Below are positions 14,708 to 35,730 of a DNA stretch of 64,000 nucleotides, one piece after another. The notes below the pieces were generated by a model. It did no database searches. It saw nothing but the letters and a program-made list of their open reading frames with translations, and was not told the DNA's origin. The number at the start of each line of letters is the position of its first letter. Within the stretch, counting starts at the first letter, position 1. A program made the position numbers and the translations under genes. Source of the DNA: Candidatus Auribacterota bacterium (GTDB lineage: Bacteria > Auribacterota > Tritonobacteria > UBA1439); contig JAPLCX010000085.1 in NCBI GenBank assembly GCA_026392035.1, positions 1,335-65,334 of the forward strand. The letters run 5' to 3'.

Positions 14708-14971
14708 TCATGCCAGATTCTTTGCCCGTATAATAAGATCCGCGGTCTTCTGGCGTATGTACGCAATGAGATGACAATTCCTGCAATCGAATTTCTCATT
14801 ATCATGATCTTTGCAGGAGAGAAGGACGTCCACGGCCTTTTTCAGTTCCCCGGCGAACTCAGCCTTCTCCGCGGCCCCCTTGGCCGCGTTGATAGTATCC
14901 GTAATGCTCTTGATCGCATCCTCCTGCCTCTGAAACTTCCGGCAACTTATCGCCCTGGATTCCTTTTTCAT
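14708..14971 (-). CDS. Hypothetical protein with Cys motifs, last gene of the gvp block
   Basis: Directly after gvpK; C...C-x9-CRNC; GAGGGGG RBS before ATG 14971. Confidence 0.65.
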   Translation of the reverse strand: MKKESRAISCRKFQRQEDAIKSITDTINAAKGAAEKAEFAGELKKAVDVLLSCKDHDNEKFDCRNCHLIAYIRQKTADLIIRAKNLA

Positions 14972-14984
14972 GGCCTGCACCCCC

Positions 14985-15320
14985 TCACATTAGGTCTCCC
15001 AACGGCCCCAGGTTTATGTTGAGCTCCTCATCCTTGAGCCCAAAAATCCCTTTGAGCTCCTTTATCTTGTTCTCCAACTTCATCAGGGTCTCGCCAACCT
15101 GCTCAATCTGTTCGTCCGTCAGGCTGCCCCCTTCTATCCGCCGCAGCGCCTGTTTTTCAAGCAGCTTTCTGATCAATTCTACCAGCGTGAGCACCAGCTT
15201 CGCCAATCCCTTCTCCACGTTCTTTGGGTTCGCGTCAATTTTTTTGGGAAGGGCGTCCTGTATTTTATCAAGCTCGTTCATAAACAACTCAGGTGAATCA
15301 GTCTCGACTTTGCGCTTCAT
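14985..15320 (-). CDS. gvpK: Gas vesicle protein GvpK
   Basis: GLAKLVLTLVELIRKLLEKQALRR ... LNINLGPLG. Confidence 0.93.
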   Translation of the reverse strand: MKRKVETDSPELFMNELDKIQDALPKKIDANPKNVEKGLAKLVLTLVELIRKLLEKQALRRIEGGSLTDEQIEQVGETLMKLENKIKELKGIFGLKDEELNINLGPLGDLM

Positions 15321-15414
15321 GCAATACCTCACGTTAGCTTGCGCTAACTTAAATCCCAAATCCCAAAGTTATTGAAATTCCGAGGCTGCCAGTTAATCCC
15401 CCAGCCCAATTTTA

Positions 15415-16152
15415 TTAAAAGGGCGGATGAGGGGGGATTTTCACTCTCACAAAATTATACGGAGGCCAAGGGCCGCTGAATAAATATTTAAAATCACTGT
15501 GTTCTTTTTTAAAATGCTCAAACGCTTCCCGGAAATCTCCCGCCGCTCCTTTTTTTACAAGATAATTCGCGTCAAGAAGCAGATCGCAGCTTTTAAGCTT
15601 CTCCACCTTCTTTTCTGAAATGCAGTCTTTTAACACACTCTCCAGGGCAAGGATATGTTGTTCAGCTTCCTTTTCAAATGCCTTCTCTATTTCATGTTCC
15701 GCCAGCTTCTCCTTCATGTACCTTTTTGCCGGAGTGTCTCCCGACGCGCCTGACCCGGCCGTTGAACCCTTATGCGCGTGCGCGATGTTTTCTTTTATCA
15801 CTTCCCCCGGCCAGATAACCCTGACGCCGAATTCCACCTTGTCCCTGAGCCTGTTGATATTTTCCTTGAATTCACCGTAGTGTTTTTTAAGAATGCACAC
15901 AGCATCATCCCTTGTATTGAAGACCGTGTTGAATCTCATGGGCAGGACGACATAATTACCCATTTCTCTTTCCACCACCTCTTCGTGCCTGAGGACATCC
16001 GTTTTACCTGTATCCGTTATTCCCCTCCCTATTTCGCTCGAAATTAAACCGATATCGCGATGGGGAATATTATAGATAATCGCGCCATCCAGACCCTTTA
16101 TCCGGCCTTTGAGCTTATCACCGGAATCTATCACGCAATAGGTGTAGATCAC
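15415..16152 (-). CDS. GvpL/GvpF family protein
   Basis: YTYCVI, HEEVVE, VLPMRFNT, SGPWPPYNF; GTG start 16152. Confidence 0.9.
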   Translation of the reverse strand: MIYTYCVIDSGDKLKGRIKGLDGAIIYNIPHRDIGLISSEIGRGITDTGKTDVLRHEEVVEREMGNYVVLPMRFNTVFNTRDDAVCILKKHYGEFKENINRLRDKVEFGVRVIWPGEVIKENIAHAHKGSTAGSGASGDTPAKRYMKEKLAEHEIEKAFEKEAEQHILALESVLKDCISEKKVEKLKSCDLLLDANYLVKKGAAGDFREAFEHFKKEHSDFKYLFSGPWPPYNFVRVKIPPHPPF

Positions 16153-16155
16153 TTT

Positions 16156-16345
16156 AAATCCCAAATCCCAAACTCCAAATCCCAAATAAATCCCAAATCC
16201 CAAAATTTAATTGTCATTTGGCTTTTGTCATTCATCTGTCATTTGTCATTCTGCTGATTTGTCATTTGGCCTTTGTCATTCATTTGTCATTTGCCTGCCT
16301 GCCGGCAGGCAGGGATTTTTGTCATTTATTTGTCATTTGTCATTT
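16156..16345. repeat. AAATCCC heptamer array followed by TGTCATT array with a nested CCTGCCGGCAGG palindrome
   Basis: Visible 7-bp periodicity on both arms. Confidence 0.8.
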
Positions 16346-16346
16346 C

Positions 16347-16565
16347 CTATGTCGGCTCTTCCTGTCCCCCCGCAAACGGCGTCCCTCGCAGCTTCTCCAT
16401 GGTCTCGACCGAACTCAGCAACACCTTCAATCCCAGGTAAACAAGGTCCACATCAGCCACCGATATAACTATATCGCCGCTGATCACCACGCCCTTGTTC
16501 AACACCCGGTCGAGAACCTCGAGGAGCGTGACGTCCCTTGATTTTATTACGACTTTATCTACCAT
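16347..16565 (-). CDS. Minor GvpA-family protein (GvpJ/S/M-like)
   Basis: LLEVLDRVLNKGVVISGDIVISVADVDLVYLGLKVLLSSVET. Confidence 0.88.
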   Translation of the reverse strand: MVDKVVIKSRDVTLLEVLDRVLNKGVVISGDIVISVADVDLVYLGLKVLLSSVETMEKLRGTPFAGGQEEPT

Positions 16566-17379
16566 GCTGTTTCTCCGACAACGCGCAGAAGTTATACGGC
16601 GGCCATGGCCCGGTACAGTCAAATGAAAGACCGGAAGAAGAGAACCTATCTTTGAAATCATTTGTCGCATTGATAAAACCGCCCAGCTCATTCTTGTCCA
16701 CGAGGAAGGCGGCATTCAGGATCATATCATCGTTCCTCTCGGTAACTTCCCGCGGAAGCAGCTTGTTTATGCGCGCGCGCATGCTCAATGCGCACAGCCT
16801 GTCATACATCTCCTGACCATACTCGTTCAGCTTTTTATCAACCAGAACATCGAGCAACTCATCCCTTTTCTTTTTCAACAGAAAGCCCTTCCCAGCCGAG
16901 GAAGCGCCGATCTCTTTATCCATTTGCGCGACCTCTTTATCCTGTGTCCCGAGAAATGCCCGTAATTTACCGATATCGCAATAGAGCTTCAGCCCCCACT
17001 CCTCTTTTCCGTCGAGTTCGCTCAACAAATCCTTCAGTTCTTCCTCGTATTTCTCCAACCAGCCCCGGAGGTTCGCATCAGTTTTAAAAACAGTTCCCAA
17101 TTTGAACGGGACTACCGCGCCGGCTTCCATAACTCCCTCGATTACCTTGTTATGAATATTCGCCTTTACTTTGACCCACTCGAAATCAGAGAGATGCTTT
17201 TTCAGCCCCTCTTCTCCAAACTCCTCCCCTGTCACCGCGCTCACCACGGCGTAAAGACCGTGATGACACACCACGACCGGGGCCTTCGCGATCCCCGCCA
17301 CATGGCCTGGCGCAGGCTCCCTGTCGGTCACACAATACAGGTAGATAAGACCTTTCTCGCCACTTTCCGCATCGCTCAT
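16555..17379 (-). CDS. GvpL/GvpF family protein
   Basis: YLYCV, H..VI, VVPFKLGT, TGPWPPYNF. Confidence 0.9.
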   Translation of the reverse strand: MSDAESGEKGLIYLYCVTDREPAPGHVAGIAKAPVVVCHHGLYAVVSAVTGEEFGEEGLKKHLSDFEWVKVKANIHNKVIEGVMEAGAVVPFKLGTVFKTDANLRGWLEKYEEELKDLLSELDGKEEWGLKLYCDIGKLRAFLGTQDKEVAQMDKEIGASSAGKGFLLKKKRDELLDVLVDKKLNEYGQEMYDRLCALSMRARINKLLPREVTERNDDMILNAAFLVDKNELGGFINATNDFKDRFSSSGLSFDCTGPWPPYNFCALSEKQHGR

Positions 17380-17639
17380 TCGGATGACTCTTCCTCCTCT
17401 TTACGTCCGTACGACTGCACTTCCAGGTCGGCGCTGAGCTTGACCTTATAAATGTTCCTGTCCTGCACCTTGACCGGGAGCCCGATGGATTTCATAAAGG
17501 CGCTCTCCTCATACACCTCCGCCTCGGTCTCCCACCCGTCGCTCACCCGGGCAACCTTAATGACCTTGGCTTCTTTCGCGCTGAGCGCTTTCTTTAAAAA
17601 TTCGCTGACCGCTTTCCCCGCTTCCTGAATGGTTGCCAT
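17376..17639 (-). CDS. gvpO: Gas vesicle protein GvpO (copy 2)
   Basis: VIKVARVSDGWETEAEVYEE...YKVKL; paralogue of 27454-27711. Confidence 0.75.
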   Translation of the reverse strand: MATIQEAGKAVSEFLKKALSAKEAKVIKVARVSDGWETEAEVYEESAFMKSIGLPVKVQDRNIYKVKLSADLEVQSYGRKEEEESSE

Positions 17640-17663: not shown

Positions 17664-17822
17664 AAATCCCAAATCCCAAACCCCAAATCCCAAAATTCAA
17701 ACCATTTGTCATTTTTTAGGACGTTGCCCCCTCCCCAAATCCCCCTCTGTCCCCCTTTTTCAAAGGGGGAGGAAATCCATCCCTCATTTCCCCCCTTTGT
17801 AAAGGGGGGTTGGGGGGGATTT
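17664..17822. repeat. Heptamer array plus CCCCCTTT..AAAGGGGG hairpins
   Basis: aaatcccaaatcccaaac..., then two hairpins of the G/C-tract type. Confidence 0.75.
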
Positions 17823-18045
17823 ACTTCCCTCTCGCCGCGTCCAATCGTTCCAGCAACTCCTTCTCCTGTCTGTTGTACTCCTCCTCATTTATCTCGTCCA
17901 GCTCGAACCTGAGCTGCAACTCCATCAGTTTCTCCTTTATCCTCCCCTCATCGGAGAACTCCTTCTGCGCGACCTCGTCGATCTTCCTCCCGAGCCAGAC
18001 AATCATCTTGAGAGGAGAGAGAAGTATATCGTCGATAAGGAACAT
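17821..18045 (-). CDS. gvpG: Gas vesicle protein GvpG
   Basis: DDILL.P...I.W....I...A..E..DE..I...L.ELQ...E..EI.EEEY...E.ELL.RL. Confidence 0.9.
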   Translation of the reverse strand: MFLIDDILLSPLKMIVWLGRKIDEVAQKEFSDEGRIKEKLMELQLRFELDEINEEEYNRQEKELLERLDAARGK

Positions 18046-18121
18046 ACCAAGACCACCTTGTTAATGACAAATGACAAATGCCAAAATCCAAATAAATGAC
18101 AAATGACAAAATCTAACTAGC

Positions 18122-18514
18122 TCAACCACTTTTTAGAGTCTTATTTATAATGCTGCTCAGGATAAGCAATAATTCTTCTGCCTCACCTAACTGCCAATCA
18201 AGTTCTCCTCTATCCTCCGGCTCCCTCACCAAATCCACCTTTTTTATCAAGCGCAGCCAGTGTCTTGACTCTCGCGCCTCCCTCCTGGCAATTCCCATTT
18301 TGTTCACAAAATCTTTCCTCGTAAGAGCTCCATCCGCTTCTTCCATATTCGCGCCGATCGAACCGCTTGCCCTGATTACCTGCTTCCCGTACTCTATCAA
18401 AGCCTGGCTTTTGTCCAACCTGCTTATCAGCCTCGCAACCCTCGCTGCAAACTCCAGGGCTCTATCATAAATGTCAAATTTTCTTCCTATTGTCATTTGT
18501 TTATCATTTGTCAT
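18122..18514 (-). CDS. Four-helix-bundle protein (TIGR02436/IVS-like) flanked by inverted heptamer arrays
   Basis: QVIRASGSIGANMEEA, F..K..IARREARES..WL; real start may be ATG 18496. Confidence 0.88.
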   Translation of the reverse strand: MTNDKQMTIGRKFDIYDRALEFAARVARLISRLDKSQALIEYGKQVIRASGSIGANMEEADGALTRKDFVNKMGIARREARESRHWLRLIKKVDLVREPEDRGELDWQLGEAEELLLILSSIINKTLKSG

Positions 18515-18576: not shown

Positions 18577-19332
18577 TTAGTACTTGTCTGTCTTTATCAC
18601 CAGATTCACGAAATTGAACGGCGGGAGCGTGCCCACATATTTAAACTTAACAGCCTCGCCATATTTTTCCACAAGCCCTTCGACCGCCCTATCAAACTCC
18701 TCTTCGCGTTTTTCCTCAACCAGGAAGGCCGCATTCAGGATCATCCGCTCCCCATACGTGGCATTGGTCTTGGTCTCCAGCGCGACGGGTGTGAGAAATT
18801 CCATTATCTTCTCGCGATATGCCTCCCGCTCCTTCCCGAGCGCCTCCTCAACCATCCTGCCTATTTCCATGCGCTGATAATGGGTTTTATCCGCCGGCAG
18901 CGTCGCGATCTTCTCCTTGGTCCGCCGTATATGCTCATATTTTTCCAGAATGGACGGATAAATAAATTCTTCCTTGAACACCGCCTTGAGACCGAGCTCC
19001 TTTTTCCCCTCCATCTGCCGCAACATCTGCGCGAATCGGTCGTGCTCCTTCTCCAGTATCCTCCGCACCTTGTCCTCGCTCTCCGCGATGGTGCAGAACC
19101 TGACGGGCAGCACCGTGTGATGCTTCATTACCTCTTCGATCGCGCGCTCATGTGCGATCGTGTTTTCCCGCGATATCCTGTATTCCTTGACCGGGGAATT
19201 GCTGACCACGGCGGCGACGTCATTGACGCCGAAGCTCCGCACCTCATCCCCCCTGCCGCCGATCCCGACAGGGCCGAAGGCATCGGGCTCTCCAGCCGCG
19301 ATTATACAATAGATATACTTACCCTCTTTCAC
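18577..19332 (-). CDS. GvpL/GvpF family protein
   Basis: GKYIYCII, AHERAIE, VLPVRFCT, GTLPPFNF. Confidence 0.92.
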   Translation of the reverse strand: MKEGKYIYCIIAAGEPDAFGPVGIGGRGDEVRSFGVNDVAAVVSNSPVKEYRISRENTIAHERAIEEVMKHHTVLPVRFCTIAESEDKVRRILEKEHDRFAQMLRQMEGKKELGLKAVFKEEFIYPSILEKYEHIRRTKEKIATLPADKTHYQRMEIGRMVEEALGKEREAYREKIMEFLTPVALETKTNATYGERMILNAAFLVEEKREEEFDRAVEGLVEKYGEAVKFKYVGTLPPFNFVNLVIKTDKY

Positions 19333-19433: not shown

Positions 19434-20204
19434 CTATTTTTCCCATTCTTCCTGGTAGATGACGATATTCACAAAGTTGAACACCGGCAGCGGCCCGGCG
19501 TACATGAACGTCATTCTATCTTTGTATTTCCTGCCCAGGTCATCCATGATATTGTCAAATTCCTTCTCCCGCCCCTTGTCCACCAGGAAGGCGGCATTGA
19601 TGAACATCCTGTCGTCAGTGGTATTATTGAGCTTATGGTCGTAAGCAGTTCGCCGCAGCGCGTCCACCACCCTCTCCGCCTCCTGCCGCTTCTTTTTGGC
19701 CAGCGCCTGCTCAACCATCTTGCCCAGCTCGACCCGCTCCTCAATACCCCCATTGCCCTTCGATTTCCGCAGGGTCTCCTTGAGTTGCTTGATCTCCTTG
19801 TTCTTTTCGCCGATCTCCCGGTATATGACATCCATATCCTTCCACAGCCCCTTGACGCCAAGCTCGACCTTGTGATCCATATCCCTTAAGGCATGTTTGA
19901 ACTCCCTGTATCTTCTATCGAGCAGGTTGCGTATCTCATCGGCGTCCTCCGCGACGGTGCCGAAGCGCACCGGGAGCACGCCGTCGAACTCCTTCATCAC
20001 TTCCTCGATCACCTTCTCGTGCGCGAGCATATTGTCGCGATTGACCACAAACCGCGTCATGGGATGATTGCTCACCACCATGCTGAGGTTCTCATAGCCG
20101 ATCGTGAGAATCTCGTCGCCTCTCCCGCCTATGCCGATAGCTCCGAAATTTCTCTCCTGCTTTGTCCCGATGATGCAATAGATGTATTTGCCTTCTTTTT
20201 CCAT
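19434..20204 (-). CDS. GvpL/GvpF family protein
   Basis: GKYIYCII, AHEKVIE, VLPVRFGT, GPLPVFNF. Confidence 0.92.
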   Translation of the reverse strand: MEKEGKYIYCIIGTKQERNFGAIGIGGRGDEILTIGYENLSMVVSNHPMTRFVVNRDNMLAHEKVIEEVMKEFDGVLPVRFGTVAEDADEIRNLLDRRYREFKHALRDMDHKVELGVKGLWKDMDVIYREIGEKNKEIKQLKETLRKSKGNGGIEERVELGKMVEQALAKKKRQEAERVVDALRRTAYDHKLNNTTDDRMFINAAFLVDKGREKEFDNIMDDLGRKYKDRMTFMYAGPLPVFNFVNIVIYQEEWEK

Positions 20205-20205: not shown

Positions 20206-21249
20206 TCACTCCCTCAGTCTGACGAGGATCGCGCTTCTCCGTATATCGCTCGCCTTAAATGACAGGTTCTCACTGTCCCCTCCCTGCTCCGACGCCCGGG
20301 CGTACTCTTCGAGAATCTTCCACGCTCTGGTGAGATCATCAAACACCTTCTCCATATCGGTTCCGTCAGGATTAGTGTCCGGATGCGATGAGAACGCTAA
20401 TTTCTGACGAATCTTCTTGATATCCGCCCGTGTGGCCGTGTCGCCCAGACTAAAAATCCGCCTCGCCCAATTGACCTCGTCGCTCCCCAGTTTTTTCACC
20501 TCAAGCGTGAAGAAACTGTACGGGGGGAGCGGTCCGATGCGCCGAAAATTCAGCTTCTCCTCAAACCGGGCATTGAGCTTATCCACCTTCGCATCGAATA
20601 TCTCTCGATTCTCACGCGAGACGAGGAACGCGCTGTTCATCACCATCGTGTCATCCATGAGCTCGTGGTCCCTGAACCCACAGCTCACCGCTGTAAGCTC
20701 ATGGTGAATAGCCGCCGCGCACGCTTTTCTCTGTTCATCCAGCGCCTTTTTAACAATAAGCCCTACCGTCATCTGATCCTGGGGAGTCACCCCGTTTGAA
20801 CTCGCGAGGACCTTTGCCTTGATATCCTGAACCTCTTTCCTCCCCCCGGTCTCTTTAAGCAACGCGTTAAAATCACTCCAGGTCACCGCGACGTCAATCT
20901 CCACCTTATCGGCGATTTTCTTAAATACCTCCCGCGCCAACTCATACCCCCGGGCGAGAACATCCTGCGCTTCGCTCATGCTCTCCGCATAGGTCCCCAC
21001 TCTCATCGGGATAACCGCGAATCGCCGCATCACGCTCTCGAGCACCTGCTGATGATGTATTAGTCGCCGCGCGACTTCGTCTTTTATCAGCGCGTTGTAG
21101 TCGTACAGCTCGGAGTTGCTCACCACCGCAGCGATATCCATATGGGGGATGGTGTACACCTGTTCCCCTCCTTCAATCCCGGGCTGCTCGAAGTAAAGCT
21201 CCTTATCAGATTCAATAATCCCATAGATATATTTGCCCTCCCGCTTCAT
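20206..21249 (-). CDS. GvpL/GvpF protein fused to a C-terminal J-domain
   Basis: GvpF core ending GPLPPYSF, then IKK..QKLAFSSHPDTNP...F..L..AW.IL with an intact HPD. Confidence 0.85.
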   Translation of the reverse strand: MKREGKYIYGIIESDKELYFEQPGIEGGEQVYTIPHMDIAAVVSNSELYDYNALIKDEVARRLIHHQQVLESVMRRFAVIPMRVGTYAESMSEAQDVLARGYELAREVFKKIADKVEIDVAVTWSDFNALLKETGGRKEVQDIKAKVLASSNGVTPQDQMTVGLIVKKALDEQRKACAAAIHHELTAVSCGFRDHELMDDTMVMNSAFLVSRENREIFDAKVDKLNARFEEKLNFRRIGPLPPYSFFTLEVKKLGSDEVNWARRIFSLGDTATRADIKKIRQKLAFSSHPDTNPDGTDMEKVFDDLTRAWKILEEYARASEQGGDSENLSFKASDIRRSAILVRLRE

Positions 21250-21260
21250 GATACCATTCC

Positions 21261-23428: not shown

Positions 23429-23595
23429 TAAGTTAGCTCGCTAACTTAAATCCCAAATGACAAAGCACAAATGTCAAATGAATGACAAATACCAAATGAG
23501 AGATGATAAATACCAAAGCATAAATGACAAAAATTTAAGGTTTTGTCATTGGGATTTTGTCATTTCTTTGTCATTTGAAATTTGACATTTGTCAT
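23429..23595. repeat. Gene-less inverted heptamer-array element with terminal palindrome
   Basis: TAAGTTAGC-TC-GCTAACTTA, AAATGAC-type array, then TGTCATT-type array. Confidence 0.8.
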
Positions 23596-27453: not shown

Positions 27454-27711
27454 TTATCGCTCTTCCACCCTCTCTTCTTTTCGCGCGAAAGAGACCGCCT
27501 CCAAAGCATCAGTTAATGTAATCTCGTAAACATTTCTATCCTGAACTCGGGTAGGGAGACCTAAAGATTTGATAAATGAACTCTCCTCGTAAATCTCCGC
27601 TTCGCCTATCCATCCCTCCTGAGATCTGGCTATCTTTATTACTTTTGCGTCCCTACCAAGAGTCTTTTTAAAAAAATCTGTAATTGCCTTACCCACTTCT
27701 TCTATTTTCAT
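27454..27711 (-). CDS. gvpO: Gas vesicle protein GvpO (copy 1)
   Basis: VIKIARSQEGWIGEAEIYEE...YEITL. Confidence 0.75.
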   Translation of the reverse strand: MKIEEVGKAITDFFKKTLGRDAKVIKIARSQEGWIGEAEIYEESSFIKSLGLPTRVQDRNVYEITLTDALEAVSFARKEERVEER

Positions 27712-27728: not shown

Positions 27729-28106
27729 TTATCCTGCAACTACGCCTATCCCCCTGCATTTTGAACAGGGAAGACCGCATCCTTTCTCCCGGCCTCTTCC
27801 TTTGCAGGAAAGGCATACCTCAACCTTCTTGGTATGCACGTTTACAACGCCTTTTCCACGGCAGACAATACAGGCAAGGTCGGGATTCAGATGCGATTTC
27901 CCCGTACCATTACAATAAGCGCATATCACCGCAGGCGGTTGAATATTTATAGTCCCGACGCCTGAACAAACAAAACAGCTTGTGCTTTTCTTGGAAGGCA
28001 TAAACCCTCTTCCGCCACAAAATCCACATCTATAGACGTGTTTACTTAGGACTTCTCCTCTCCTGCCTGCCTTTTGACTTTTGAAATCAAAGGTTTTCCA
28101 CATCAT
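27729..28106 (-). CDS. Stand-alone DnaJ-type zinc-finger protein
   Basis: Six CxxCxGxG repeats. Confidence 0.85.
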   Translation of the reverse strand: MMWKTFDFKSQKAGRRGEVLSKHVYRCGFCGGRGFMPSKKSTSCFVCSGVGTINIQPPAVICAYCNGTGKSHLNPDLACIVCRGKGVVNVHTKKVEVCLSCKGRGREKGCGLPCSKCRGIGVVAG

Positions 28107-28138: not shown

Positions 28139-28453
28139 TTAATATTTTAGATGCATGGTCTTCCAGTCTTTGGATGGAGGCTTTTTGAATCCCCCGGGAT
28201 CTGCCTGGCTTCTTCTAGGTTCCGCTTCTTCTAGTTTTTTCATTTCCGCGTTAATCTCATCAATCCTTTTTTGCATACTCTTTTTTCTTTTATCTAAAAT
28301 ATAAGTTTCCTTTTCCAGCCTATCCTTCTCTTTTTTCAACATATATAAATCGAGATAGGTAGAGCTTTGCACTCTGGGGATTGATCTCTTTTTGGCGCTA
28401 TGCAGAGTCCTTACCTCTCTCAAACCGCTTAATTCCGTAACTCCTCTGACCAT
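28139..28453 (-). CDS. Hypothetical coiled-coil protein
   Basis: Heptad-like LYMLKKEKDRLEKE...IDEI; operon position and RBS. Confidence 0.65.
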   Translation of the reverse strand: MVRGVTELSGLREVRTLHSAKKRSIPRVQSSTYLDLYMLKKEKDRLEKETYILDKRKKSMQKRIDEINAEMKKLEEAEPRRSQADPGGFKKPPSKDWKTMHLKY

Positions 28454-28696: not shown

Positions 28697-29668
28697 CTAT
28701 ACTACAGAGGTTTCTTTCTCGGATTTCTGTCCAATCTTCTCTGCGCTCCTGGCCTTGCCAAGTTCCTTTTCCACAAGATCTCTGACTACTTCTTTCACCC
28801 TGGCTTGATTCGTCCTTGAGCCAACCCGGCTTGTCTCAGATGCCAGGATATCCTGACACATCTTCAGGAACCCATCTGAGTTGGAAGGAGTCATATTCTG
28901 GACTTTAAGCGTTTTTGCAATCATAATACAGCCGCGGATGGTTGGAGCGAATTCGCACTTTCCCGATTCCCTCAAGCCCCTGACAATATTAACTACCTTC
29001 TCGGCATGGTGTTTTGAGAGCTTGGATTTCGCCTGGGTTATTGCCAGCTCTGTCTCATAGTCAAAGTGCTCCAGGTCCATGGTAATCATTCTATCCCTTA
29101 GCGCATCCTGACTCCTGTGTACCCCGGCATATTCCTCAGGGTTGGAGGTAAAAACAGCGGTAAAATCAGGATCAACCCTTAAATATGGTTCTTCTCCACC
29201 TCTTCCCACCGGCAAATCCATCATCTTCTCCTGAAGGATGGAGAGGAGAATATTATTAGCTTCCGGGCGCGACCGGGTGAATTCGTCATAGATCAGCGTA
29301 AATCCGTACTTACAGGCAACGGTCAGCCGGTTATCCACCCATCTCTTTATCATATCCTCTTCTACCTTCAAAACCCTGGATACAAAGCGGTCAACCACCT
29401 TTCTGATTCGATAGCCATACTCGCCACCGACTAAATCAGAGGTGGTAAACTCTTCATCTCCATGAATCATCACCACCGGCCGTCCTATTTTACTCGCGAT
29501 ATGCATAGCCAACGTTGTCTTGCCGGTGCCGGATACCCCCCTGAAGTGAACCGGAAAGCCGGCCTTAATATAGGAAAGGCTCCTATCGGTAACATCCTTG
29601 ATATACTTGGTTTCCACAAAGTCCGGCAGAGGACTTGGCTCCAATACTGTGGTCATCTCATCAACCAT
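28697..29668 (-). CDS. gvpN: Gas vesicle AAA+ ATPase GvpN
   Basis: HFRGVSGTGKTTLA, YDEFTRS.PEANN.LL, TSNPEEYAGVH..QDAL.DR. Confidence 0.96.
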   Translation of the reverse strand: MVDEMTTVLEPSPLPDFVETKYIKDVTDRSLSYIKAGFPVHFRGVSGTGKTTLAMHIASKIGRPVVMIHGDEEFTTSDLVGGEYGYRIRKVVDRFVSRVLKVEEDMIKRWVDNRLTVACKYGFTLIYDEFTRSRPEANNILLSILQEKMMDLPVGRGGEEPYLRVDPDFTAVFTSNPEEYAGVHRSQDALRDRMITMDLEHFDYETELAITQAKSKLSKHHAEKVVNIVRGLRESGKCEFAPTIRGCIMIAKTLKVQNMTPSNSDGFLKMCQDILASETSRVGSRTNQARVKEVVRDLVEKELGKARSAEKIGQKSEKETSVV

Positions 29669-29674: not shown

Positions 29675-30073
29675 TCACCCCTTTTCTGTTTGTCTGCCTG
29701 CCCGCCGAAGCCCTGGCGCAGGCAGGGAATTCGATTTCTTGCTTCTTAGAGTCTCATTCATTTTGTTCCAGGTTCTGCTTGCTTCAGCCAAATCTGCTTT
29801 TATTTCCTGCTCTTTCTTCTTAAAGTCTTTCCTCAGGGCATTGACATTTTTGATTAGCTCATCTCTCTTCCTTTGTAAATATGCTTTTTGCTCTTTAGCC
29901 ATTTCCTGATGAAACTTCCTGGAATCAGCTAAAAACTTCCTGGCATTATCTTGAACAGCGGCAGCTTGTTTCTTCAGCTCTCTGATGCCGCTCTTTCTAT
30001 CTTCGTGACCTGTTATAATATTTTCACAGATAGATTTCATGTCGCCTGATACATTCCCATGGACCAGCCTCAT
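29675..30073 (-). CDS. Helical GvpC-like protein (short paralogue)
   Basis: Related N-terminal I.E.II...E.R...I.EL motif and amphipathic helix; ATGA overlap with the upstream stop. Confidence 0.5.
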   Translation of the reverse strand: MRLVHGNVSGDMKSICENIITGHEDRKSGIRELKKQAAAVQDNARKFLADSRKFHQEMAKEQKAYLQRKRDELIKNVNALRKDFKKKEQEIKADLAEASRTWNKMNETLRSKKSNSLPAPGLRRAGRQTEKG

Positions 30074-30390
30074 TTGCGAACAACCCCTTTGCCCCCGCAT
30101 TTGATACAAGGTAACCCACTATCTATCTCTGCGCCAGTACCTTTACATTTAGGGCACTCTTCGGCAGCGCCTTTAACTGTGACCATACCTTTGCCATCAC
30201 ATACAGTGCAGGTAACCCGGGCATTATGAGGATAGACACCGGTTGCGTTACAAAAAGCGCATTTAATCGCCGGCTCCACAACCTCAACCTTACCTGTGCC
30301 TCCGCATACCTGACAGGTGGCAAGCTCGGATAGCAGATTAAACGGGTCTATACCTTTTCCTTTACAAAAAGCGCATCTTATTTTGCCCAA
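30070..30390 (-). CDS. Stand-alone DnaJ-type zinc-finger protein
   Basis: Six CxxCxGxG-type repeats. Confidence 0.85.
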   Translation of the reverse strand: MGKIRCAFCKGKGIDPFNLLSELATCQVCGGTGKVEVVEPAIKCAFCNATGVYPHNARVTCTVCDGKGMVTVKGAAEECPKCKGTGAEIDSGLPCIKCGGKGVVRK

Positions 30391-30414
30391 TTTCCACCTC
30401 CCCTCACCCTGGCC

Positions 30415-30795
30415 TTCCCCCCATCGTCTCCCCCTTTGGAAAAGGGGGTTAGGGGGGATTTTCCCCCTTCCGCCAATCCCCGGCTAAATCCCCCCTGCCC
30501 CCCTTTGCTAAAGGGGGGGGAATTGGAGGGCCTTCGCCACCTTCATTGCCTTCTCCCCCCGTTCCCCCTTTTGAAAAAGGGGGCTATGGGCACGGCCCCC
30601 TCTTTGGAAGATTTGCTCTCACCCTGTTCCCCCCTTTGAAAAGGGAACTATGAGGGCGGATCCCTCTTTGGCAGATCTGCTTTCACCCCGTTCCCCCCTT
30701 TGTTAAAGGGGGGGAGAATTGGAGGGCCTTCGCCACCTTCATTGCCTTCTCCCCTCGTTCCCCCCTTTGGAAAAGGGGGGTTAGGGGGGATTTGA
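30415..30795. repeat. Cluster of CCCCCTTT-N2-4-AAAGGGGG hairpins with an internal duplication
   Basis: About eight hairpins; GGAGGGCCTTCGCCACCTTCATTGCCTTCTCCCC appears twice (~30523 and ~30721). Confidence 0.85.
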
Positions 30796-30858
30796 GAAAT
30801 CTCCTCCACCACCGCCGCCTGCCGGTCCTTCAGACAGGCTTCCCAGTCAGGGGCGAGT

Positions 30859-31443
30859 TTATCCTCTCTTCTTTGGTCTTCCTCTTTTCTTTTTCGGCTT
30901 CGCGACAGCCTCTTCAACAGTCTTTACCCCAGCCCTGGCTTCGACCCCGATAGGCTTGCCGCCTCTTCTCTTTGCCATGGCAGCGGACATCGCCCACCAA
31001 TTTGCCGCCATCCTGCCGTTCTCATCCGCTAACCCCTTCAACATCTTCCTGGTGCCATTCACTAAATCCGCCGCAAACTTGGCAAGATCCTTCCTTTGTT
31101 CCTCGCTCATATCAGCGTGGGCGTCGGAAAACTCTTTCAGCTTGTTTCTGACGTGCGTCTCGATATCTTTAGTGTTCTTCGCGAGACTCTTTCTGAGGTC
31201 GTCGGTCATTTCCTTGTGATCTTTCTGAAACCCGCCAAGGAGATTTCCGACATTCTTGGTCAGATCTCCCACGAAGCCCCCCAGAAATTGAGCCTGTTCC
31301 GCGCTCATCTTCTTCCTATCGGACGTAAAGCCATTCAGCGTCTCATGAACATCGCCCACAAGTTGCCCGAGTGACTTTACCCTGAGATCATACGAGGATA
31401 TGATATCCTCAGTGATCCTCTTTATGCCATCTGCTATTCCCAT
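30859..31443 (-). CDS. GvpC-like 33-aa repeat protein
   Basis: Three exact 33-aa repeats starting FTSDRKKM, FQKDHKEM and FSDAHADM; basic tail KKRGRPKK. Confidence 0.65.
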   Translation of the reverse strand: MGIADGIKRITEDIISSYDLRVKSLGQLVGDVHETLNGFTSDRKKMSAEQAQFLGGFVGDLTKNVGNLLGGFQKDHKEMTDDLRKSLAKNTKDIETHVRNKLKEFSDAHADMSEEQRKDLAKFAADLVNGTRKMLKGLADENGRMAANWWAMSAAMAKRRGGKPIGVEARAGVKTVEEAVAKPKKKRGRPKKRG

Positions 31444-31466
31444 ATCATCCTCCTTTCCTTGTTCAC

Positions 31467-33376
31467 GGTACTGTCAAAATTTTTATCTTAAATATTGCCT
31501 AACTCACTAGAGTTAAGCATGTTGCTGCAAAATTAGCTTCCTCCCCCTATTTTCAGGGGTTTTTACCCTCTATTTCACCCCCAGGAGTTATCCACATGAG
31601 CCCGAGGCCGAGCGTTTCTGCAGAGCTCGGCTCGGCGAGGGTCCCGCCACGGCGGGATGGGTAACTCCGTGCTCTGAAATCCTTTTTCGCGTATAATTAC
31701 CGCATTGCCCTCTCTACAAAAGGAGCATGTCACCCATGAAAAAGCTCGATCGCTTTATCATCTGGATCTGCAGCAAGTTTAACCGCAAAGAAATCGAATT
31801 CATTGTCGCAGGCCTTGTCAGAATCCTCGTCGATCGTAACCCGGAAGTTAAACCGCGCGATGATTTCAAAGAGAAACATCCAAACTACCGCAACTTCTCC
31901 GTCGATCCCTTGCCGCCAATATCAGAACCCCTTAAAAAAAAGATCGAACTTGTTCTTGGAAAGAACTTCTTGCGCGATATCCCAAAGAACACGGCAAACC
32001 GTTAGAACCTGTTTCCCATCGATCTCAGAAACTTCTCGTCCCAAAACACATCAAATGCCCCTGCTGCAACGCCCCACATCGCTACCTCTACTACAACGAT
32101 GGCACTCGTCGTTCTCAAATCCGTTGCAAAGTCTGTTACACCCTCTCACAAATTGGCAAACACAAACGGCAACCCAAAACAGCCTTCTGGTGCCCCTACT
32201 GTCACAATGCGCTCTACCTCTGGAAACAAAAACCTCTCTTTACCATCTATAAGTGCTGCAACGATAACTGCCCCCGCTATCTCGAGAACCTCAACAAGCT
32301 CAACCCAAGCGAGAAAAAAGAACGTAGAAAGCGCGTATCTCAGTTTAAACTCTGCTACCAATACCGCGTCTATCACTTCAAAGATCAACAACTCGCTCCC
32401 TCTTCACCTATGCAACCGACAGTCGATTTAAGCCGCATCCATGCCCATCCCAGCCTCGTCGGCCTTATCCTTACCTTCCACATATCCTTTGCTCTCTCCG
32501 CCCGCAAAACCGCGCTCATGCTCAGACAGGTGTTCAATATCCGCATCTCTTATCAGACCGTCCTCAACTACTCCGAAGCCGCAGCCTATTGGTGCCACCG
32601 CTTCAATCGCAACTTCAAAGGCTCTATTGATACGATAGCTGCCATTGATGAAACATACATCAAGGTCGCGGGCAAATGGGCATTTACCTTCCTGGCTGTC
32701 GCCATCCGCTCACTTAAAATTATTGCCTATCATGTCGCGCATGATCGCTCTGTTCTTCCCGCCGTCTGCGCCCTTAAAGAAGCCATCAGAACCGCTCACC
32801 CCATGCAATCTCTTACTCTCGTCAGCGATGGCAACCCTTCTTATGGCGATGCCACCCATTTCGTCAACTCCTCCAAAAACGGCCACCCTCTCAAACACCG
32901 CAAGGTAATCGGCCTGCAAAACCTTGATCAGGAGTCAGAAACCTATCGCCCTTTCAAACAAATAATCGAACGCCTCATGCGTACTTACAAGTCCCATACC
33001 CGCTCAGCGTGTGGCTTTGACTCATTCTACGGCGCCATAATCCTCACCACTCTCGTCGTTACTCACTATAACTTCTTAAGACCGCACAGCAGCCTAGGCT
33101 ACAAAACACCTATCGTCATCGATGATCTTCAGTCTATACCCACCATCCAGGATCAGTGGTGTAAGATCATCGACATATCGATGAAGCTTGCTGCGTAGCT
33201 GATCCTCTTGTCAAAGAGCTTTACTCAACCTCAGGATAACTCTGCCTCTTACCTGCTTATTACCGCTCTCGTCCCGTACTTATCGCCTCGCAAAACCTCT
33301 GTTCCCCATACCTCCGCTATCGCTTACCCCTATATCTCGTCACTTCCTAACCTTTCATAGAACTTTTGACACTACC
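31467..33376 (+). mobile_element. IS6-family-like insertion sequence (1910 bp)
   Basis: TIRs GGTACTGTCAAAATTT and (reverse complement) GGTAGTGTCAAAAGTT; 8-bp TSD TTGTTCAC at 31459-31466 and 33377-33384. Confidence 0.9.
31727..33198 (+). CDS. DDE transposase with zinc-finger N-half, split by a -1 frameshift at an A8G tract
   Basis: Frame 2 from 31727; frame 1 is open from ~31939 to 33198 (CPCC, CKVC, CPYC; IDETYIK, SDG, IER). Confidence 0.85.
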
Positions 33377-33422
33377 TTGTTCACCGTTTAAAACCGCTTA
33401 TGTAAAAGAGCGGGGAGTATTC

Positions 33423-34163
33423 TTATCCTTTCTTACCCTTCCTCCTGCCTCCTTTCTTCCCAGGCTTTTTAACTGCATCTTCAACTGTGGTTACCTTCTC
33501 TCCAGCTTCAACCTTAACCAGCTTAGCTCCTTTTCTTTTGTCCATCGTAGCTGCCATGTCTTGCCAATTAGCAGCCATTTTCTCTCTTTCATCTGAAAAA
33601 CCACCTAGCAGTTTCTTTGTTTCACTGACAATACCAGCTACATACTTGGCCAACTCTTTCTTGAGCTCTTCGCTCATATCCGCATGCGCATCAGAGAATT
33701 CCTTGAGCTTGTTTTTAACGTGGGTCTCGATGTCCTTGATACCTTTTCTAATGTCCCCCATCATAGCCTTAAAGCCCTTAATTCTATCTGCTTCTCCTTT
33801 CTCAAGCCCTTCCTCAAGATTGTCAGCCATCTCTTTATGGGCCTTCGCTATTGCTTTCATCATGGTGCCAACATTTTTAGTGAGGTCTTTTACGAAGTCA
33901 GTCAAACTTTCTGATAACTCCTCACTCATTTCTTTATGCTCTTTCTGGAATCTTTTAAGCGTGCTTTCCACGTTTTTCGACAGATCCTCGACGAAATCGG
34001 CTAATGACTTAGCCTGTTCCGCGCTCATTCTCTTCCTGTCTTGCGTGAAGCCTTTTAAGGTCTTTTGGGTATCAGCCACCAGCTCACCGAGCGCCTTTAC
34101 CCGCAGATCATACGAGCCGATGATATCCTCGCCCAACCTTTTCATGCTATCTGCAATACCCAT
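33423..34163 (-). CDS. GvpC-like 33-aa repeat protein (long paralogue)
   Basis: 33-aa repeats FTQDRKRM, FQKEHKEM, IAKAHKEM, FSDAHADM; paralogue of 30859-31443. Confidence 0.65.
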   Translation of the reverse strand: MGIADSMKRLGEDIIGSYDLRVKALGELVADTQKTLKGFTQDRKRMSAEQAKSLADFVEDLSKNVESTLKRFQKEHKEMSEELSESLTDFVKDLTKNVGTMMKAIAKAHKEMADNLEEGLEKGEADRIKGFKAMMGDIRKGIKDIETHVKNKLKEFSDAHADMSEELKKELAKYVAGIVSETKKLLGGFSDEREKMAANWQDMAATMDKRKGAKLVKVEAGEKVTTVEDAVKKPGKKGGRRKGKKG

Positions 34164-34315: not shown

Positions 34316-34399
34316 GTTAGCTCGCTTTGGCTCGCTAATTAAAACCCTAAATCCTAAACCCGAAACTCTAAACAAATCCAAAACCCAAAAACCCAAACA
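34316..34399. repeat. GTTAGCTCGCT palindrome variant plus AAACCCT/AAATCC heptamer-like array
   Basis: Resembles the element ends at 15333 and 23429. Confidence 0.6.
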
Positions 34400-34430
34400 A
34401 AGACGCATGGACGATGAAAAAATTCCAAAG

Positions 34431-35114
34431 TTATTGTAATCCCGAGGCAGCAAAAGCATCTCCGGAACAAGTCCCCTGTGCTACCGAAGCGTACTCACTC
34501 CGATCACTGATCTGATCAGTCTCTTTCTGATACCGGAGCTGAATTTCCTGAACCGCCATCTTTAAATCTTTCACCTGAAGTTTATCACCCTTGGCCAGGA
34601 GACCCCTCAGGGATGCGAGAAGTTCCTGCTGTTCCTTCTCAAATTCATACAGCGCGCCCACAACCTCGTTCTTTCTCCGCTCTGTTTTTTCAAGAATCCG
34701 CCGTATCGTCTCCTGGAATTCTTTAACCCGCCGCGACTCCCCCCTGCCCAGAGAGCTCCTCAATTCATCAAGCTGTTCTCTCAACATCCTCGCCATCTCT
34801 CTCTGTTCGTCGAAATAACCATCCAGCAGATCGCGCACTTCCCTCTCCCGTTCCTCCTGCGCTGACACCACGCCATTCATCATCCCGTCAAAATCCCTCT
34901 TTCTTAGAGAACCGTTCTGGGCGAGAAGTTCGCGCAATTCCCCATTGGCATATTCGCGCTCCCTGTGTACATCAAGAAAAGATTCCTCAAAACCCTTGAG
35001 AAGCTGCTGCGTGGTGTCGCAAAGGGATTCAAACTCCCGTATGCGGGTGTCATAAGAGCCGAGCGCACTATCAATTATCGCTCGTACGTCACTGGATAGG
35101 GCTGCTTTTTTCAT
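34431..35114 (-). CDS. Coiled-coil protein, distant GvpC-like paralogue
   Basis: Directly downstream of gvpA; shares SYD.R...L with the repeat proteins. Confidence 0.55.
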   Translation of the reverse strand: MKKAALSSDVRAIIDSALGSYDTRIREFESLCDTTQQLLKGFEESFLDVHREREYANGELRELLAQNGSLRKRDFDGMMNGVVSAQEEREREVRDLLDGYFDEQREMARMLREQLDELRSSLGRGESRRVKEFQETIRRILEKTERRKNEVVGALYEFEKEQQELLASLRGLLAKGDKLQVKDLKMAVQEIQLRYQKETDQISDRSEYASVAQGTCSGDAFAASGLQ

Positions 35115-35157
35115 ATTGCACTTCGATTGGGTTGAACATCCTTGAAGGGTATTGCTT

Positions 35158-35198
35158 GGCGAGATATGCCCCGCCTTGCGGGGGATACCTCGGCAAGC
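35158..35198 (-). terminator. GC-rich hairpin after the second gvpA (terminator or mRNA-stabilising)
   Basis: CCCCGC-CTT-GCGGGG core with extended GAG.TAT..ATA.CTC arms. Confidence 0.4.
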
Positions 35199-35212
35199 AC
35201 CCTTTTCCCCGC

Positions 35213-35419
35213 TTACGCCGCTGACGCGGTAAGGCCGATCGCCTCGGCATACTTCAGGTACGTCTCGACTGATGCAACCACGACCCTGGCTTCAACAGCG
35301 AGCAGCTCAATACCCACCAACGACACTCTCACCCAGGCATCAACCACGATGCCCTTATCCAGTATCCGGTCGATAACCTCAACCAGGCTGGATGAACCGA
35401 TCGTTTTCTCTACTGCCAT
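35213..35419 (-). CDS. gvpA: Major gas vesicle protein GvpA (copy 2)
   Basis: [55 protein letters not shown]. Confidence 0.98.
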
Positions 35420-35523
35420 GTTAATTCACCTCCTTCCCTTATTGGATTTTTGCTGCAAACTCCTCGATGCCACTCACTCAAATCCCCCCTGCCCCCCTTT
35501 TCTAAAGGGGGAAAGAGGGGGAT

Positions 35524-35730
35524 TTACGCTGCCGACGCGGTCAGGCCGATTGCTTCGGCATACTTCAGGTACGTCTCGACTGATGCCGCCACGATTCTGG
35601 CTTCAACAGCGAGCAGCTCAATACCCACCAACGACACTCTCACCCAGGCATCAACCACGATGCCCTTGTCCAGTATCCGGTCGATAACCTCAACCAGGCT
35701 GGACGATCCGATCGTCTTTTCCACTGCCAT
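35524..35730 (-). CDS. gvpA: Major gas vesicle protein GvpA (copy 1)
   Basis: Same as copy 2 except I46/A48; GGAGGTGA RBS before ATG 35730. Confidence 0.98.

Follow-up and report, generated by a model that had tools for sequence, protein, structure and literature searches.

The 64,000-nucleotide (nt) stretch of contig JAPLCX010000085.1 analysed here (the window) carries a gas-vesicle (gvp) gene cluster of 29 minus-strand genes, mapped as open reading frames (ORFs) over the 21,023 bp from position 14708 to position 35730. With a probability of roughly 0.8, this cluster represents an apparently intact gas-vesicle biogenesis island, belonging to a widespread, clade-specific gvp type of uncultivated, mostly anaerobic bacteria. 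The same gene order recurs in dozens of independent genomes, which places the gene set far beyond chance. The window adds no new kind of system, and its interest lies in a chaperone module conserved in the whole clade more than in its size.

Gene content and spread of the cluster

The ORFs between 12 and 38.5 kb of the window were mapped, and each candidate was scanned against Pfam and NCBIfam (Table 1). The family matches bear out the initial annotation, which had described a large, paralogue-rich gas-vesicle cluster: two gvpA genes, two minor GvpA-family genes, gvpN, gvpK, gvpG and five GvpL/F genes are all present. The boundaries it gave are exact, with gvpA1 as the first gene and an ORF of 87 amino acids (aa) as the last, the product of the latter being 79% identical to its counterpart in the closest relative (locus L090, described below). 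GvpA1 matches Anabaena GvpA (PDB entry 8GBS; E = 1.4e-31, approximately 88% identity) and B. megaterium GvpB (PDB entry 7R1C; E = 1.4e-23), and gvpA2 is 91% identical to gvpA1 across 230 nt of DNA. The GvpL/F proteins, GvpG, GvpK and the products of the two minor PF00741 genes all score above curated cut-offs, and both Walker motifs (A and B) of GvpN are intact. The GvpJ-like protein is 63% identical to the product of the GvpJ-position gene of Nostoc and 92% identical to its L090 counterpart.

Other parts of that description needed qualification. The two genes named gvpO are both present as GvpO-like genes, copy b being 57% identical to copy a (E = 1e-33), with copy a scoring below the PF05800 cut-off and copy b having no Pfam match; BLAST comparison with Halobacterium GvpO gave no match. 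Most of the ORFs listed as unknown can be named (GvpV-like, Hsp20 in two copies, Get3/ArsA-like, VAT/Cdc48-like and two DnaJ-type zinc-finger proteins), and small ORFs without a family remain. A single orientation does not hold for the whole region, since an IS6/IS240-type transposase gene and a retropepsin-like aspartyl protease gene lie on the plus strand.

A scan with GvpN, at one genome per species, returned 210 matching stretches. The best 80 of these 210 are 77–91% identical and come from metagenome-assembled genomes (MAGs) labelled with approximately 18 phyla. Gene order was derived from tblastn of all window proteins against the loci of the relatives. Thirty-seven loci of at least 15 kb constitute the long relatives, a lower bound among the 210 GvpN matches. 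The conserved order begins with gvpA, cc227, pha, (zinc finger), (cc132), gvpN, GvpV-like, hsp20, arsA and cdc48, and continues with gvpF-J, gvpF, gvpF, gvpG, gvpO, gvpF, gvpS, (gvpF), gvpK, u90 and (gvpJ). The Cdc48-like, cc227, GvpV-like and Hsp20 genes occur in all 37 long loci, the gene for the fusion protein GvpF-J in 35 and the ArsA-like gene in 32.

Ordinary conservation of GvpN was considered as the reason for its 78–91% identity across phyla and was rejected: the protein shares only 40–52% identity with GvpN of the characterised lineages (Halobacterium, Nostoc, Octadecabacter and Methylosinus), and these clusters therefore form a tight clade of their own. The nearest neighbour carries the same phylum label in 41 of 74 cases for GvpN (13.5 expected) and in 32 of 47 for the Cdc48-like protein (7.0 expected). 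Between-label GvpN identity still averages 84%, a value that may reflect late transfer, strong constraint or mislabelling of bins.

The taxonomic placement of the window is suggested by the nearest named relatives of MoaA and GvpF-J, which lie in MAGs labelled Chlamydiota or Candidatus (Ca.) Aureabacteria. For MoaA, encoded in the flank (57838-58785), the best-matching named relatives are from a 'Chlamydiota bacterium' MAG, at 68% identity, and from Ca. Aureabacteria MAGs, at 65%; Ca. Aureabacteria corresponds to Ca. Auribacterota, a member of the Planctomycetota–Verrucomicrobiota–Chlamydiota (PVC) group. The nearest named relatives of the two proteins agree, and a single lineage is thus indicated by the gene in the cluster and by the one in the flank. 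A non-phototrophic bacterium of the PVC group (Auribacterota or 'Chlamydiota'-labelled) is the probable host. Auribacterota have been inferred to be fermentative by Williams et al. 2022 (PMC9324843), who mention gvp genes in one Auribacterota species in passing; together with the MoaA and GvpF-J relatives, this makes the non-phototrophic host proposed in the initial annotation very probably right.

The closest example of the cluster type, L090, is a 31-kb contig (ENA ERZ4223250, NODE_1282) whose GvpF-J (MEI6633070.1, 'Chlamydiota bacterium' MAG) is 82% identical to that of the window; further examples are L039, L015, L017, L029 and L042. L090 comprises NtrC, a small ORF, two gvpA genes, the remaining gvp genes through gvpK, u87, a histidine kinase, a receiver, u208 and u267; its gene order agrees with that of the window from gvpA as far as the histidine kinase, receiver and u208 downstream. 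Both loci have two gvpA genes, the GvpF-J fusion, the Hsp20–ArsA–Cdc48 block and five GvpL/F genes. From hsp20 to u257 they are collinear, with proteins about 76–96% identical and DNA approximately 89% identical. On the gvpA-proximal side, identity is 100% for gvpA, 84% for GvpN, 60% for pha, 45% for cc227, 37% for the GvpV-like protein and 28% for cc132. With a divergent proximal segment (27.4-35.1 kb) and a distal segment (10.3-26.7 kb) similar to L090, the cluster is a mosaic. A second hsp20, the insertion sequence (IS), the aspartyl-protease cassette, the gene for a 23S-rRNA-intervening-sequence-type protein (23S-IVP), a second large GvpC-like gene, a second zinc-finger gene, a second GvpO-like gene and small ORFs of 56 (s56) and 102 aa (wh102) are present in the window and not in L090. 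The larger size of the window copy is attributable to the hsp20 duplication, the IS, the protease cassette, the 23S-IVP gene and the differing gvpA-proximal segment.

All four GvpC-like paralogues of the window (cc227, pha246, pha194 and cc132) lie between gvpA2 and gvpN, which matches the position of gvpC between gvpA and gvpN in cyanobacteria, haloarchaea and Serratia. A 33-residue period is a hallmark of cyanobacterial GvpC; it is the top period in pha246 and pha194, and not in cc227 or cc132. The Pfam matches of pha246 are solely sub-threshold and apolipoprotein- or phasin-like. pha194 is 60% identical to the sole pha gene product of L090 and matches Nostoc GvpC in BLASTP (E = 6e-7), in a comparison of helical, compositionally biased proteins. 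The pha/GvpC-like profile A1 (23 members) aligns with Nostoc GvpC over 114 columns from residue 1 (94.8% probability, E = 5.4e-8), again between biased helical proteins. The same profile is linked by hhalign to the cc227 family profile A3 (probability 99.5%, E = 1.6e-22) and to cc132 (probability 96.5%, E = 7.4e-10). A direct link between cc227 and Nostoc GvpC was not found, and no GvpC family was among the matches listed (25 of 76) for the 23-member GvpC-like scan. Kinship with haloarchaeal (Halobacterium) GvpC was rejected at a profile probability of 0.2%. On the basis of the 33-residue periodicity, the profile links and the position between gvpA and gvpN, we accept the four paralogues as putative GvpC relatives, in the sense of remote homology among compositionally biased helical proteins; this part of the initial annotation is upheld by profiles and by no curated GvpC model.

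The GvpV-like coiled-coil protein is linked through family profile A2 to Nostoc GvpV (L088:8612-8926; 89.6% probability, E = 1.9e-6, 52 columns). Its gene follows gvpN or the 56-aa ORF in most relatives, and gvpJ in L090. The gene after gvpN in Spartinivicinus was also considered as a GvpV-like profile match and was rejected (5% probability). The repeat number of GvpC-like orthologues varies widely among genomes, and some of them (for example those of L058, L060, L064, L068 and L077) have an extra conserved C-terminal domain of approximately 60 aa with the pattern ...HP.G.RV..ME.PLG..R..LG.I.K.LL..GKV.K....YFP.

Chaperone-type genes within the cluster

Between the two halves of the cluster lies a conserved set of genes for Hsp20, Get3/ArsA-like, VAT/Cdc48-like, zinc-finger and GvpF-J proteins, which would constitute a proteostasis module. 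The Cdc48-like ATPase aligns with VAT (PDB entry 5g4f) over residues 5–706 (E = 1.3e-220), with both Walker A/B pairs and both aromatic pore loops intact; its C-terminal tail (...SPAGHKA) lacks the HbYX motif for docking to the archaeal 20S proteasome. The Get3/ArsA-like ATPase contains the P-loop GKGGVGKT, the motif DTAPTGH and, at residue 260, CDFC, and the PDB chains closest to it are those of ARSA1, archaeal Get3 homologues and Get3/ASNA1. Among its orthologues, DTAPTGH is kept in 52 of 53 and CxxC, which presumably binds zinc, in 49 of 53. A two-domain ArsA is encoded at a different position in the Desantisbacteria locus L020 (17385-19400), and in Nostoc L088 (9801-13584) a two-domain ArsA adjoins a Cdc48-like AAA ATPase; two distinct ArsA types, single-domain and two-domain, are therefore associated with gvp clusters.

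In GvpF-J, a GvpL/F domain is followed by a J-domain (PF00226, 31.4 bits with a cut-off of 27.8), and the protein matches GvpF structures (PDB entries 6l5d and 4qsg) as well as J-domains. The HPD motif lies at residue 294 of the 352-aa ORF (20206-21264), which is residue 289 counted from the ATG at 21249, and is kept in all 42 loci with a J-domain match. A database of 5.8 billion proteins contains 634 relatives of GvpF-J, and the best 120 of the 634 all have both domains. A Desulfobacterota-type GvpF-J query retrieved MAG and metagenome proteins only, with no named isolate among the relatives.

In the proposed mechanism, the two GvpA proteins would form the shell, and the GvpJ-like, GvpS/M-like, GvpF/L, GvpG, GvpK, GvpO-like, GvpN and GvpV-like proteins would make up the assembly set, while the GvpC-like paralogues may coat and stiffen the vesicle exterior. 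Most likely, the module maintains the solubility of the very hydrophobic GvpA-family proteins and delivers them to the vesicle as it grows: Hsp20 together with the Get3-like ATPase would shield hydrophobic subunits, the J-domain could recruit the Hsp70 of the cell to the GvpF/L nucleation complex, and the Cdc48-like ATPase might unfold or extract subunits. Expression would be set by the two-component and sigma-54 system. The chaperone role is suggested by the conserved position of the module and by the physical fusion in GvpF-J. That vesicle assembly in this clade depends on a dedicated, cluster-encoded proteostasis machine is a tentative proposal, with somewhat less than an even chance of being correct. 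Under such dependence, Hsp20 and the Get3-like protein would hold or target subunits, and the Cdc48-type ATPase would feed them in or extract them from collapsed shells for recycling.

The chaperone-type genes could instead be general stress or quality-control passengers with no direct part in vesicle assembly, in keeping with the assembly of vesicles by characterised clusters that lack such genes and with the fact that Castillo & Saier inferred a role solely from gene context (PMC2963123). However, the genes lie inside the cluster, from the gvpN side to the gvpF side, in 32–37 of 37 loci and in many phyla; the J-domain is physically fused to GvpL/F in 634 database proteins; and the pairing of ArsA with an AAA ATPase recurs beside cyanobacterial gvp genes. 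We therefore regard passenger status as unlikely.

A literature search of incomplete coverage found no papers in which the zinc-finger proteins, the Cdc48-like gene or the J-domain fusion in GvpF-J are described for gvp clusters; the literature searched also contained no broad survey of gvp cluster diversity and no description of a proteostasis layer in vesicle biogenesis or turnover. Gas vesicles, the only known gas-enclosing protein shells, are the subject of engineering for use as ultrasound reporter genes. In a very common natural cluster type, as the window shows, chaperone-type genes and several GvpC-like coat paralogues are encoded alongside the shell genes. If the chaperone-type genes act in assembly, they are candidates for improving heterologous expression and for explaining how the hydrophobic shell protein is handled, and dependence on a proteostasis machine, if true, could help to explain the failure of many clusters in E. 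coli.

Insertions, repeats and flanking regulators

The cluster is interrupted by DNA that is specific to the window. The IS6-type insertion between two GvpC-like genes is absent from all 37 long relatives and from L090, and neither terminal inverted repeats or target duplications nor other copies of it were found. The protease cassette and the hsp20 spacer are likewise absent from the relatives. The two hsp20 copies are 92.6% identical over 540 nt, and their duplication is bordered by hairpins resembling repetitive extragenic palindromes (REP-like) at 25978-26061, within the spacer, and at 26670-26754; further copies lie at 46415-46442 and 47485-47512. The 23S-IVP gene is missing from all 37 relatives and L090 and is present on contigs of the window's own strain. 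The insert of defence- and toxin-type genes brings the distance between the activator and gvpA1 to 3.4 kb, compared with roughly 0.9–2.5 kb in relatives.

These features raise the alternative of a decaying or silenced cluster, in which the insertions uncouple gvpA from its activator and break transcription of the operon, so that the strain makes no vesicles. Four window-specific insertions absent from all relatives, the 3.4 kb between NtrC and gvpA1, and terminator-like hairpins would fit such a state. Every insertion is intergenic, however, and leaves the gvp genes unbroken: all 28 reading frames related to gvp have their full length, with intact catalytic motifs, and BLASTX against the ORFs of the relatives revealed no pseudogene remnants in the IS region, the hsp20 spacer, the NtrC–gvpA gap or the IVP region, apart from a Fic homologue in L042. 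Moreover, contigs from at least four independent sequencing runs show the same arrangement, the IVP gene included, which identifies it as a stable population variant; samples of the ERR153021xx and SRR2069864x-65x series carry this strain. Silencing or decay is accordingly judged improbable, and an intact island remains the preferred reading.

The G+C content is 0.45–0.56 at approximately 10–50 kb (the gvp island and its regulators), compared with 0.58–0.62 in the flank at 50–64 kb. Twelve hairpins of the form CCCCC(C)-TTT-N-AAA-GGGGG(G) all fall within 10.2-41.8 kb (10218, 17751-17809, 30430-30780, 35492-35511, 40556-40574 and 41741-41803), with none in the flanks of the window; five of them fall in the array of 64-bp period that separates pha194 from the zinc-finger gene, and another is located between gvpA1 and gvpA2. 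The lower G+C content, the confinement of all twelve hairpin elements and the presence of toxin-antitoxin, IS and RAYT genes suggest that the gvp region is an acquired island. A tRNA scan of the window found none, hence no tRNA-linked island boundary was drawn, and Rfam at gathering thresholds gave no matches in the whole window.

Several intergenic gaps of the cluster are filled by heptamer tandem repeats (AAATCCC and TTTGTCA/AATGACA units, 4–12 copies each; 16156-16338, 17664-17703, 18063-18110, 23454-23596 and 34342-34401), which we take to resemble the STRR-type heptamer repeats of cyanobacteria and Beggiatoa. Translation of these repeats gives the 'LGFGVWDLGF' N-terminal extensions of some ORF calls. 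An IS200/RAYT-type Y1 transposase gene at 46433-47449 (PF01797, 6.8e-11), with hairpin copies of approximately 28 nt on both sides, splits a paralogue of the 208-aa protein u208 into 46026-46412 and 47488-48126.

The gvp genes are flanked by conserved two-component and sigma-54 regulators, so that the functional locus is predicted to extend from approximately 10.3 to 45.8 kb and thus to be wider than the block at 14708-35730. The four genes of the downstream regulatory block (10268-14608) also follow the cluster in L090, at 48–88% identity, and the pair of u208 and the receiver recurs in 16–23 relatives. The 206–212-aa family to which u208 belongs has no Pfam or NCBIfam assignment and always adjoins a CheY-like receiver, beside or inside gvp clusters; it is found twice in the window (11102-11728 and 47488-48126), in L090 (19007-19633), and inside the cluster in L009, L051 and L083. 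On the upstream side, NtrC-type orthologues at 54–61% identity precede gvpA in many relatives, and the order HK368–u203 (GYF-like+REC)–NtrC–gvpA is kept in at least six of them (L015, L017, L024, L064, L020 and L069) at 54–65% identity.

A strict sigma-54 motif has two matches only in the whole 64 kb, and in 12 of 56 relatives, compared with 0.17 expected, it is found no more than 300 nt upstream of gvpA. The small leader ORF that follows it encodes 57 aa in the window and 75 aa in L090, with the shared pattern ...RE...RxCRx..(I/L)(S/T)PEEW.... This ORF and a hairpin are kept in L090 (1339-1600), with a possible role as leader/attenuator or as small regulator. The flanking two-component proteins and the NtrC-type sigma-54 activator probably control expression, by analogy with Serratia sp. 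ATCC 39006. Upstream of this island in window coordinates, at 5519-9506, the translations indicate a 653-aa protein, which the initial annotation treated as a class III cyclase, a 451-aa protein like GAF plus PP2C-type phosphatase and a 147-aa protein like an anti-sigma-factor-type kinase.

Several points weigh against an intact and functional island of the proposed kind. The cluster is known here from its genes, vesicles and expression being predicted. Transcription could be disturbed by the IS, by the protease gene on the opposite strand and by the 3.4-kb insert; the stretch from the sigma-54 motif to gvpA1 includes a terminator-like hairpin (35841-35823), and a strict motif of this type is missing upstream of gvpA in L090. 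None of the four window proteins called GvpC-like matches a curated GvpC model (PF01304 and others) in Pfam or NCBIfam at E ≤ 0.01, and the putative GvpC and GvpV links are profile comparisons of low-complexity helical proteins. As to the module, Serratia can dispense with gvpH, which is Hsp20-like. Vesicles are made in E. coli by the clusters of Anabaena, B. megaterium and Serratia in the absence of Hsp20, ArsA, Cdc48-like or J-domain genes (Hurt et al. 2023; Tashiro et al. 2016, PMC4982088), and the module is therefore not universally required.

The GvpA structures might also serve ends other than buoyancy, such as control of cell volume or of the surface-to-volume ratio, or another role as a gas-filled or collapsed compartment. 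The MAGs of the relatives come, by their record titles, from groundwater, a mine, a fen and a bioreactor, which would suit such a role; related MAGs nevertheless also come from stratified lakes, where buoyancy is the inferred use (PMC9324843), and GvpA is approximately 88% identical to a proven buoyancy shell protein, so that we consider a non-buoyancy function rather improbable. As a probable buoyancy island, the cluster adds to the evidence for a wide distribution of buoyancy organelles among uncultivated anaerobes that are not phototrophs, lineages of the PVC group among them.

Table 1. Features of the gvp locus and its surroundings in window coordinates; fractions give occurrence among the 37 long relatives
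Feature	Position	Strand	Evidence and remarks
257-aa protein (u257)	10268-11041	-	downstream of gvp block
208-aa protein (u208)	11102-11728	-	no family; downstream of gvp block
CheY-like receiver	11725-12129	-	Pfam; downstream of gvp block
PAS/GAF histidine kinase	12110-14608	-	Pfam; downstream of gvp block
Conserved 87-aa protein with CxxC	14708-14971	-	no family match; last gvp-block gene; after gvpK in 10/37
gvpK	14985-15320	-	PF05121 7.9e-35
GvpL/F paralogue	15415-16152	-	PF06386 4.5e-51; GTG start set by L090 homology
GvpS/M-like small GvpA-family protein, 72 aa	16347-16565	-	PF00741 1.3e-15; 93% identical to L090 counterpart
GvpL/F paralogue	16555-17379	-	PF06386 7.4e-57
GvpO-like a	17376-17639	-	PF05800 1.5e-4, 22.1 bits (below 25-bit cut-off); after gvpG in 27/37
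gvpG	17821-18045	-	PF05120 1e-19
23S-IVP-type four-helix protein, not gvp	18122-18514	-	PF05635 2.1e-18
GvpL/F paralogue	18577-19332	-	PF06386 1e-68
GvpL/F paralogue	19434-20204	-	PF06386 3.3e-65
GvpL/F with C-terminal J-domain (GvpF-J)	20206-21249	-	PF06386 2.6e-56
VAT/Cdc48-like double-ring AAA+ ATPase	21261-23402	-	CDC48_N, CDC48_2, two AAA domains; 37/37, median 75% identity
Single-domain Get3/ArsA-like ATPase, 312 aa	23650-24588	-	PF02374 3.2e-79; 32/37
Hsp20 copy 2, recent duplicate	24570-25118	-	PF00011 3.1e-10
Window-specific spacer between hsp20 copies	25101-26063		retropepsin-like aspartyl protease 25464-25955 (+), PF13975 2.2e-14
Hsp20 copy 1	26072-26650	-	PF00011 3.9e-10; PF17886 (ArsA_HSP20) 4e-7; 93% identical to single hsp20 of L090
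102-aa ORF (wh102)	26757-27065	-	no family match; 3/37 at ~69% identity
GvpJ-like minor GvpA-family protein, 98 aa	27108-27404	-	PF00741 6e-17
GvpO-like b	27454-27711	-	no Pfam match; 5/37
Second DnaJ-type zinc-finger protein, 125 aa, six CXXCXGXG	27729-28106	-	PF00684 1.8e-8; 15/37
GvpV-like coiled-coil protein, cc104	28139-28453	-	two genes after gvpN; 37/37
Small conserved ORF, 56 aa	28487-28657	-	no family match; 10/37 at ~70% identity; called on independent contigs
gvpN, AAA+ ATPase	28697-29668	-	TIGR02640 equivalog 331 bits (cut-off 266.8); PF07728
GvpC-like 4, cc132, short family member	29675-30073	-	called as 132-aa gene on independent contigs
DnaJ-type zinc-finger protein, 106 aa, six CxxC	30070-30390	-	PF00684 2.2e-12; 24/37, median 67% identity
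Intergenic array of CCCCCC-TTT-N-AAA-GGGGGG hairpin (REP-like) elements	30391-30858		Tandem Repeats Finder: 64-bp period, 4.5 copies
GvpC-like 3, pha194	30859-31443	-	33-residue periodicity, z=7.8 vs shuffles
Window-specific insertion between two GvpC-like genes, with IS6/IS240-type DDE transposase (32410-33198, +)	31444-33422		PF13610 4.3e-10, PF13683 3e-9
GvpC-like 2, pha246	33423-34163	-	33-residue periodicity, z=9.3 vs shuffles
GvpC-like 1, cc227, 227-aa helical protein	34431-35114	-	directly after gvpA in 37/37
gvpA2, second major shell gene	35213-35419	-	PF00741 6.3e-16
gvpA1, major shell protein, 68 aa	35524-35730	-	PF00741 2.6e-15; ATG start, AGGGAGGTG Shine-Dalgarno
Small leader ORF	35847-36020	-	between sigma-54 motif and gvpA1
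Sigma-54-type motif TGGCATGATTATTGCT	36044-36029	-	strict motif, 314 nt upstream of gvpA1
Insert between NtrC-type activator and gvpA1	36663-39059		window-specific; defence/toxin-type genes; Pfam matches
AbiEii fragment	36663-36965		within activator-gvpA insert
DUF4172-Fic protein	37115-38236	+	within activator-gvpA insert
Pol-beta-type nucleotidyltransferase	38811-39059		within activator-gvpA insert
NtrC-type sigma-54-dependent response regulator	39099-40505	-	REC, Sigma54_activat (1.4e-67), HTH_8
GYF-like+REC protein	41818-42429	-	Pfam; upstream sensory block (41818-45769)
PAS histidine kinase	42469-43575	-	Pfam; upstream sensory block
MEDS-PAS histidine kinase	43619-45769	-	Pfam; upstream sensory block

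Comparison with known gas-vesicle systems

That the cluster is exceptional, expanded beyond the known range as the emphasis of the initial annotation on size and paralogue content implied, is highly improbable: although its 29 same-strand genes in 21 kb exceed the 14–19 genes of the B. megaterium and Serratia (PMC4982088) clusters, the same architecture occurs in dozens of public genomes and in no fewer than 37 long loci, several of the additional genes arose locally by insertion or duplication, and published precedents include L/F and M paralogues with ArsA and Hsp20 from 2010 (PMC2963123) and both a functional 23.5-kb cluster and a range of '7-20+ other genes' from 2023 (Hurt et al. 2023).

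In the description of Hurt et al. 2023, gvp clusters consist of gvpA plus that number of other genes, and most natural clusters fail to assemble in E. coli. The 23.5-kb cluster of Desulfobacterium vacuolatum DSM 3385 (FWXY01000008:1268-24724) did make vesicles in E. coli at 30 °C in that study; by its description it resembles the window cluster in size and in coming from an anaerobic non-phototroph. Castillo & Saier 2010 (PMC2963123) reported gvp clusters with ArsA, Hsp20, four to five L/F genes and several M paralogues, and proposed a chaperone or energising role from this context. The clusters of Polaribacter irgensii, Pelodictyon luteolum and Geobacter uraniireducens resemble the window in having an ArsA homologue and hsp20 within paralogue-rich gvp clusters (PMC2963123). 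The ArsA proteins of that study are internally duplicated, with two domains and approximately 600 aa, whereas the window protein has a single domain, 312 aa and a CxxC motif; the Cdc48-like ATPase, J-domain fusion and zinc-finger proteins of the window are not mentioned there.

The cluster of Nostoc sphaeroides (p4; L088), which is of the Anabaena flos-aquae type, has the order gvpA-A-C-N-J-K-F-G-V-W followed by ArsA and an AAA ATPase. It shares with the window the order gvpA–gvpC-like–gvpN, GvpA (87–88% identity), GvpJ (63%) and GvpK (46%), GvpV-like and GvpC-like proteins detectable by profile, and an adjacent ArsA-family ATPase with a Cdc48-like AAA ATPase (48% identical to that of the window). 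It differs in its GvpN (46% identity), in having a single GvpC where the window has four paralogues and two L/F-type genes where the window has five, and in its two-domain ArsA of 635 aa, compared with one domain and 312 aa; Hsp20, the J-domain fusion, the zinc-finger proteins and the NtrC-type regulator are absent from it.

The cluster of Serratia sp. ATCC 39006 (19 genes, 16.6 kb; Tashiro et al. 2016, PMC4982088), compared by its published description, resembles that of the window in its several GvpA isoforms and GvpF paralogues, in the order gvpA-gvpC-gvpN-gvpV, and in an NtrC-type sigma-54 activator, GvrA, which is accompanied by a kinase and a receiver (GvrB and GvrC) and drives the sigma-54 promoter of gvpA1. 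In contrast to the window, its regulators lie inside the cluster, and no Cdc48-like, Get3-like, J-domain or zinc-finger genes are reported (PMC4982088). ArsA and Hsp20 in paralogue-rich gvp clusters (2010), large functional clusters (2023) and a Cdc48-like gene beside the gvp genes of Nostoc are thus already known, and the window represents, in well-preserved form and with local enlargement by mobile DNA, a cluster type that is common and as yet untouched by experiment.

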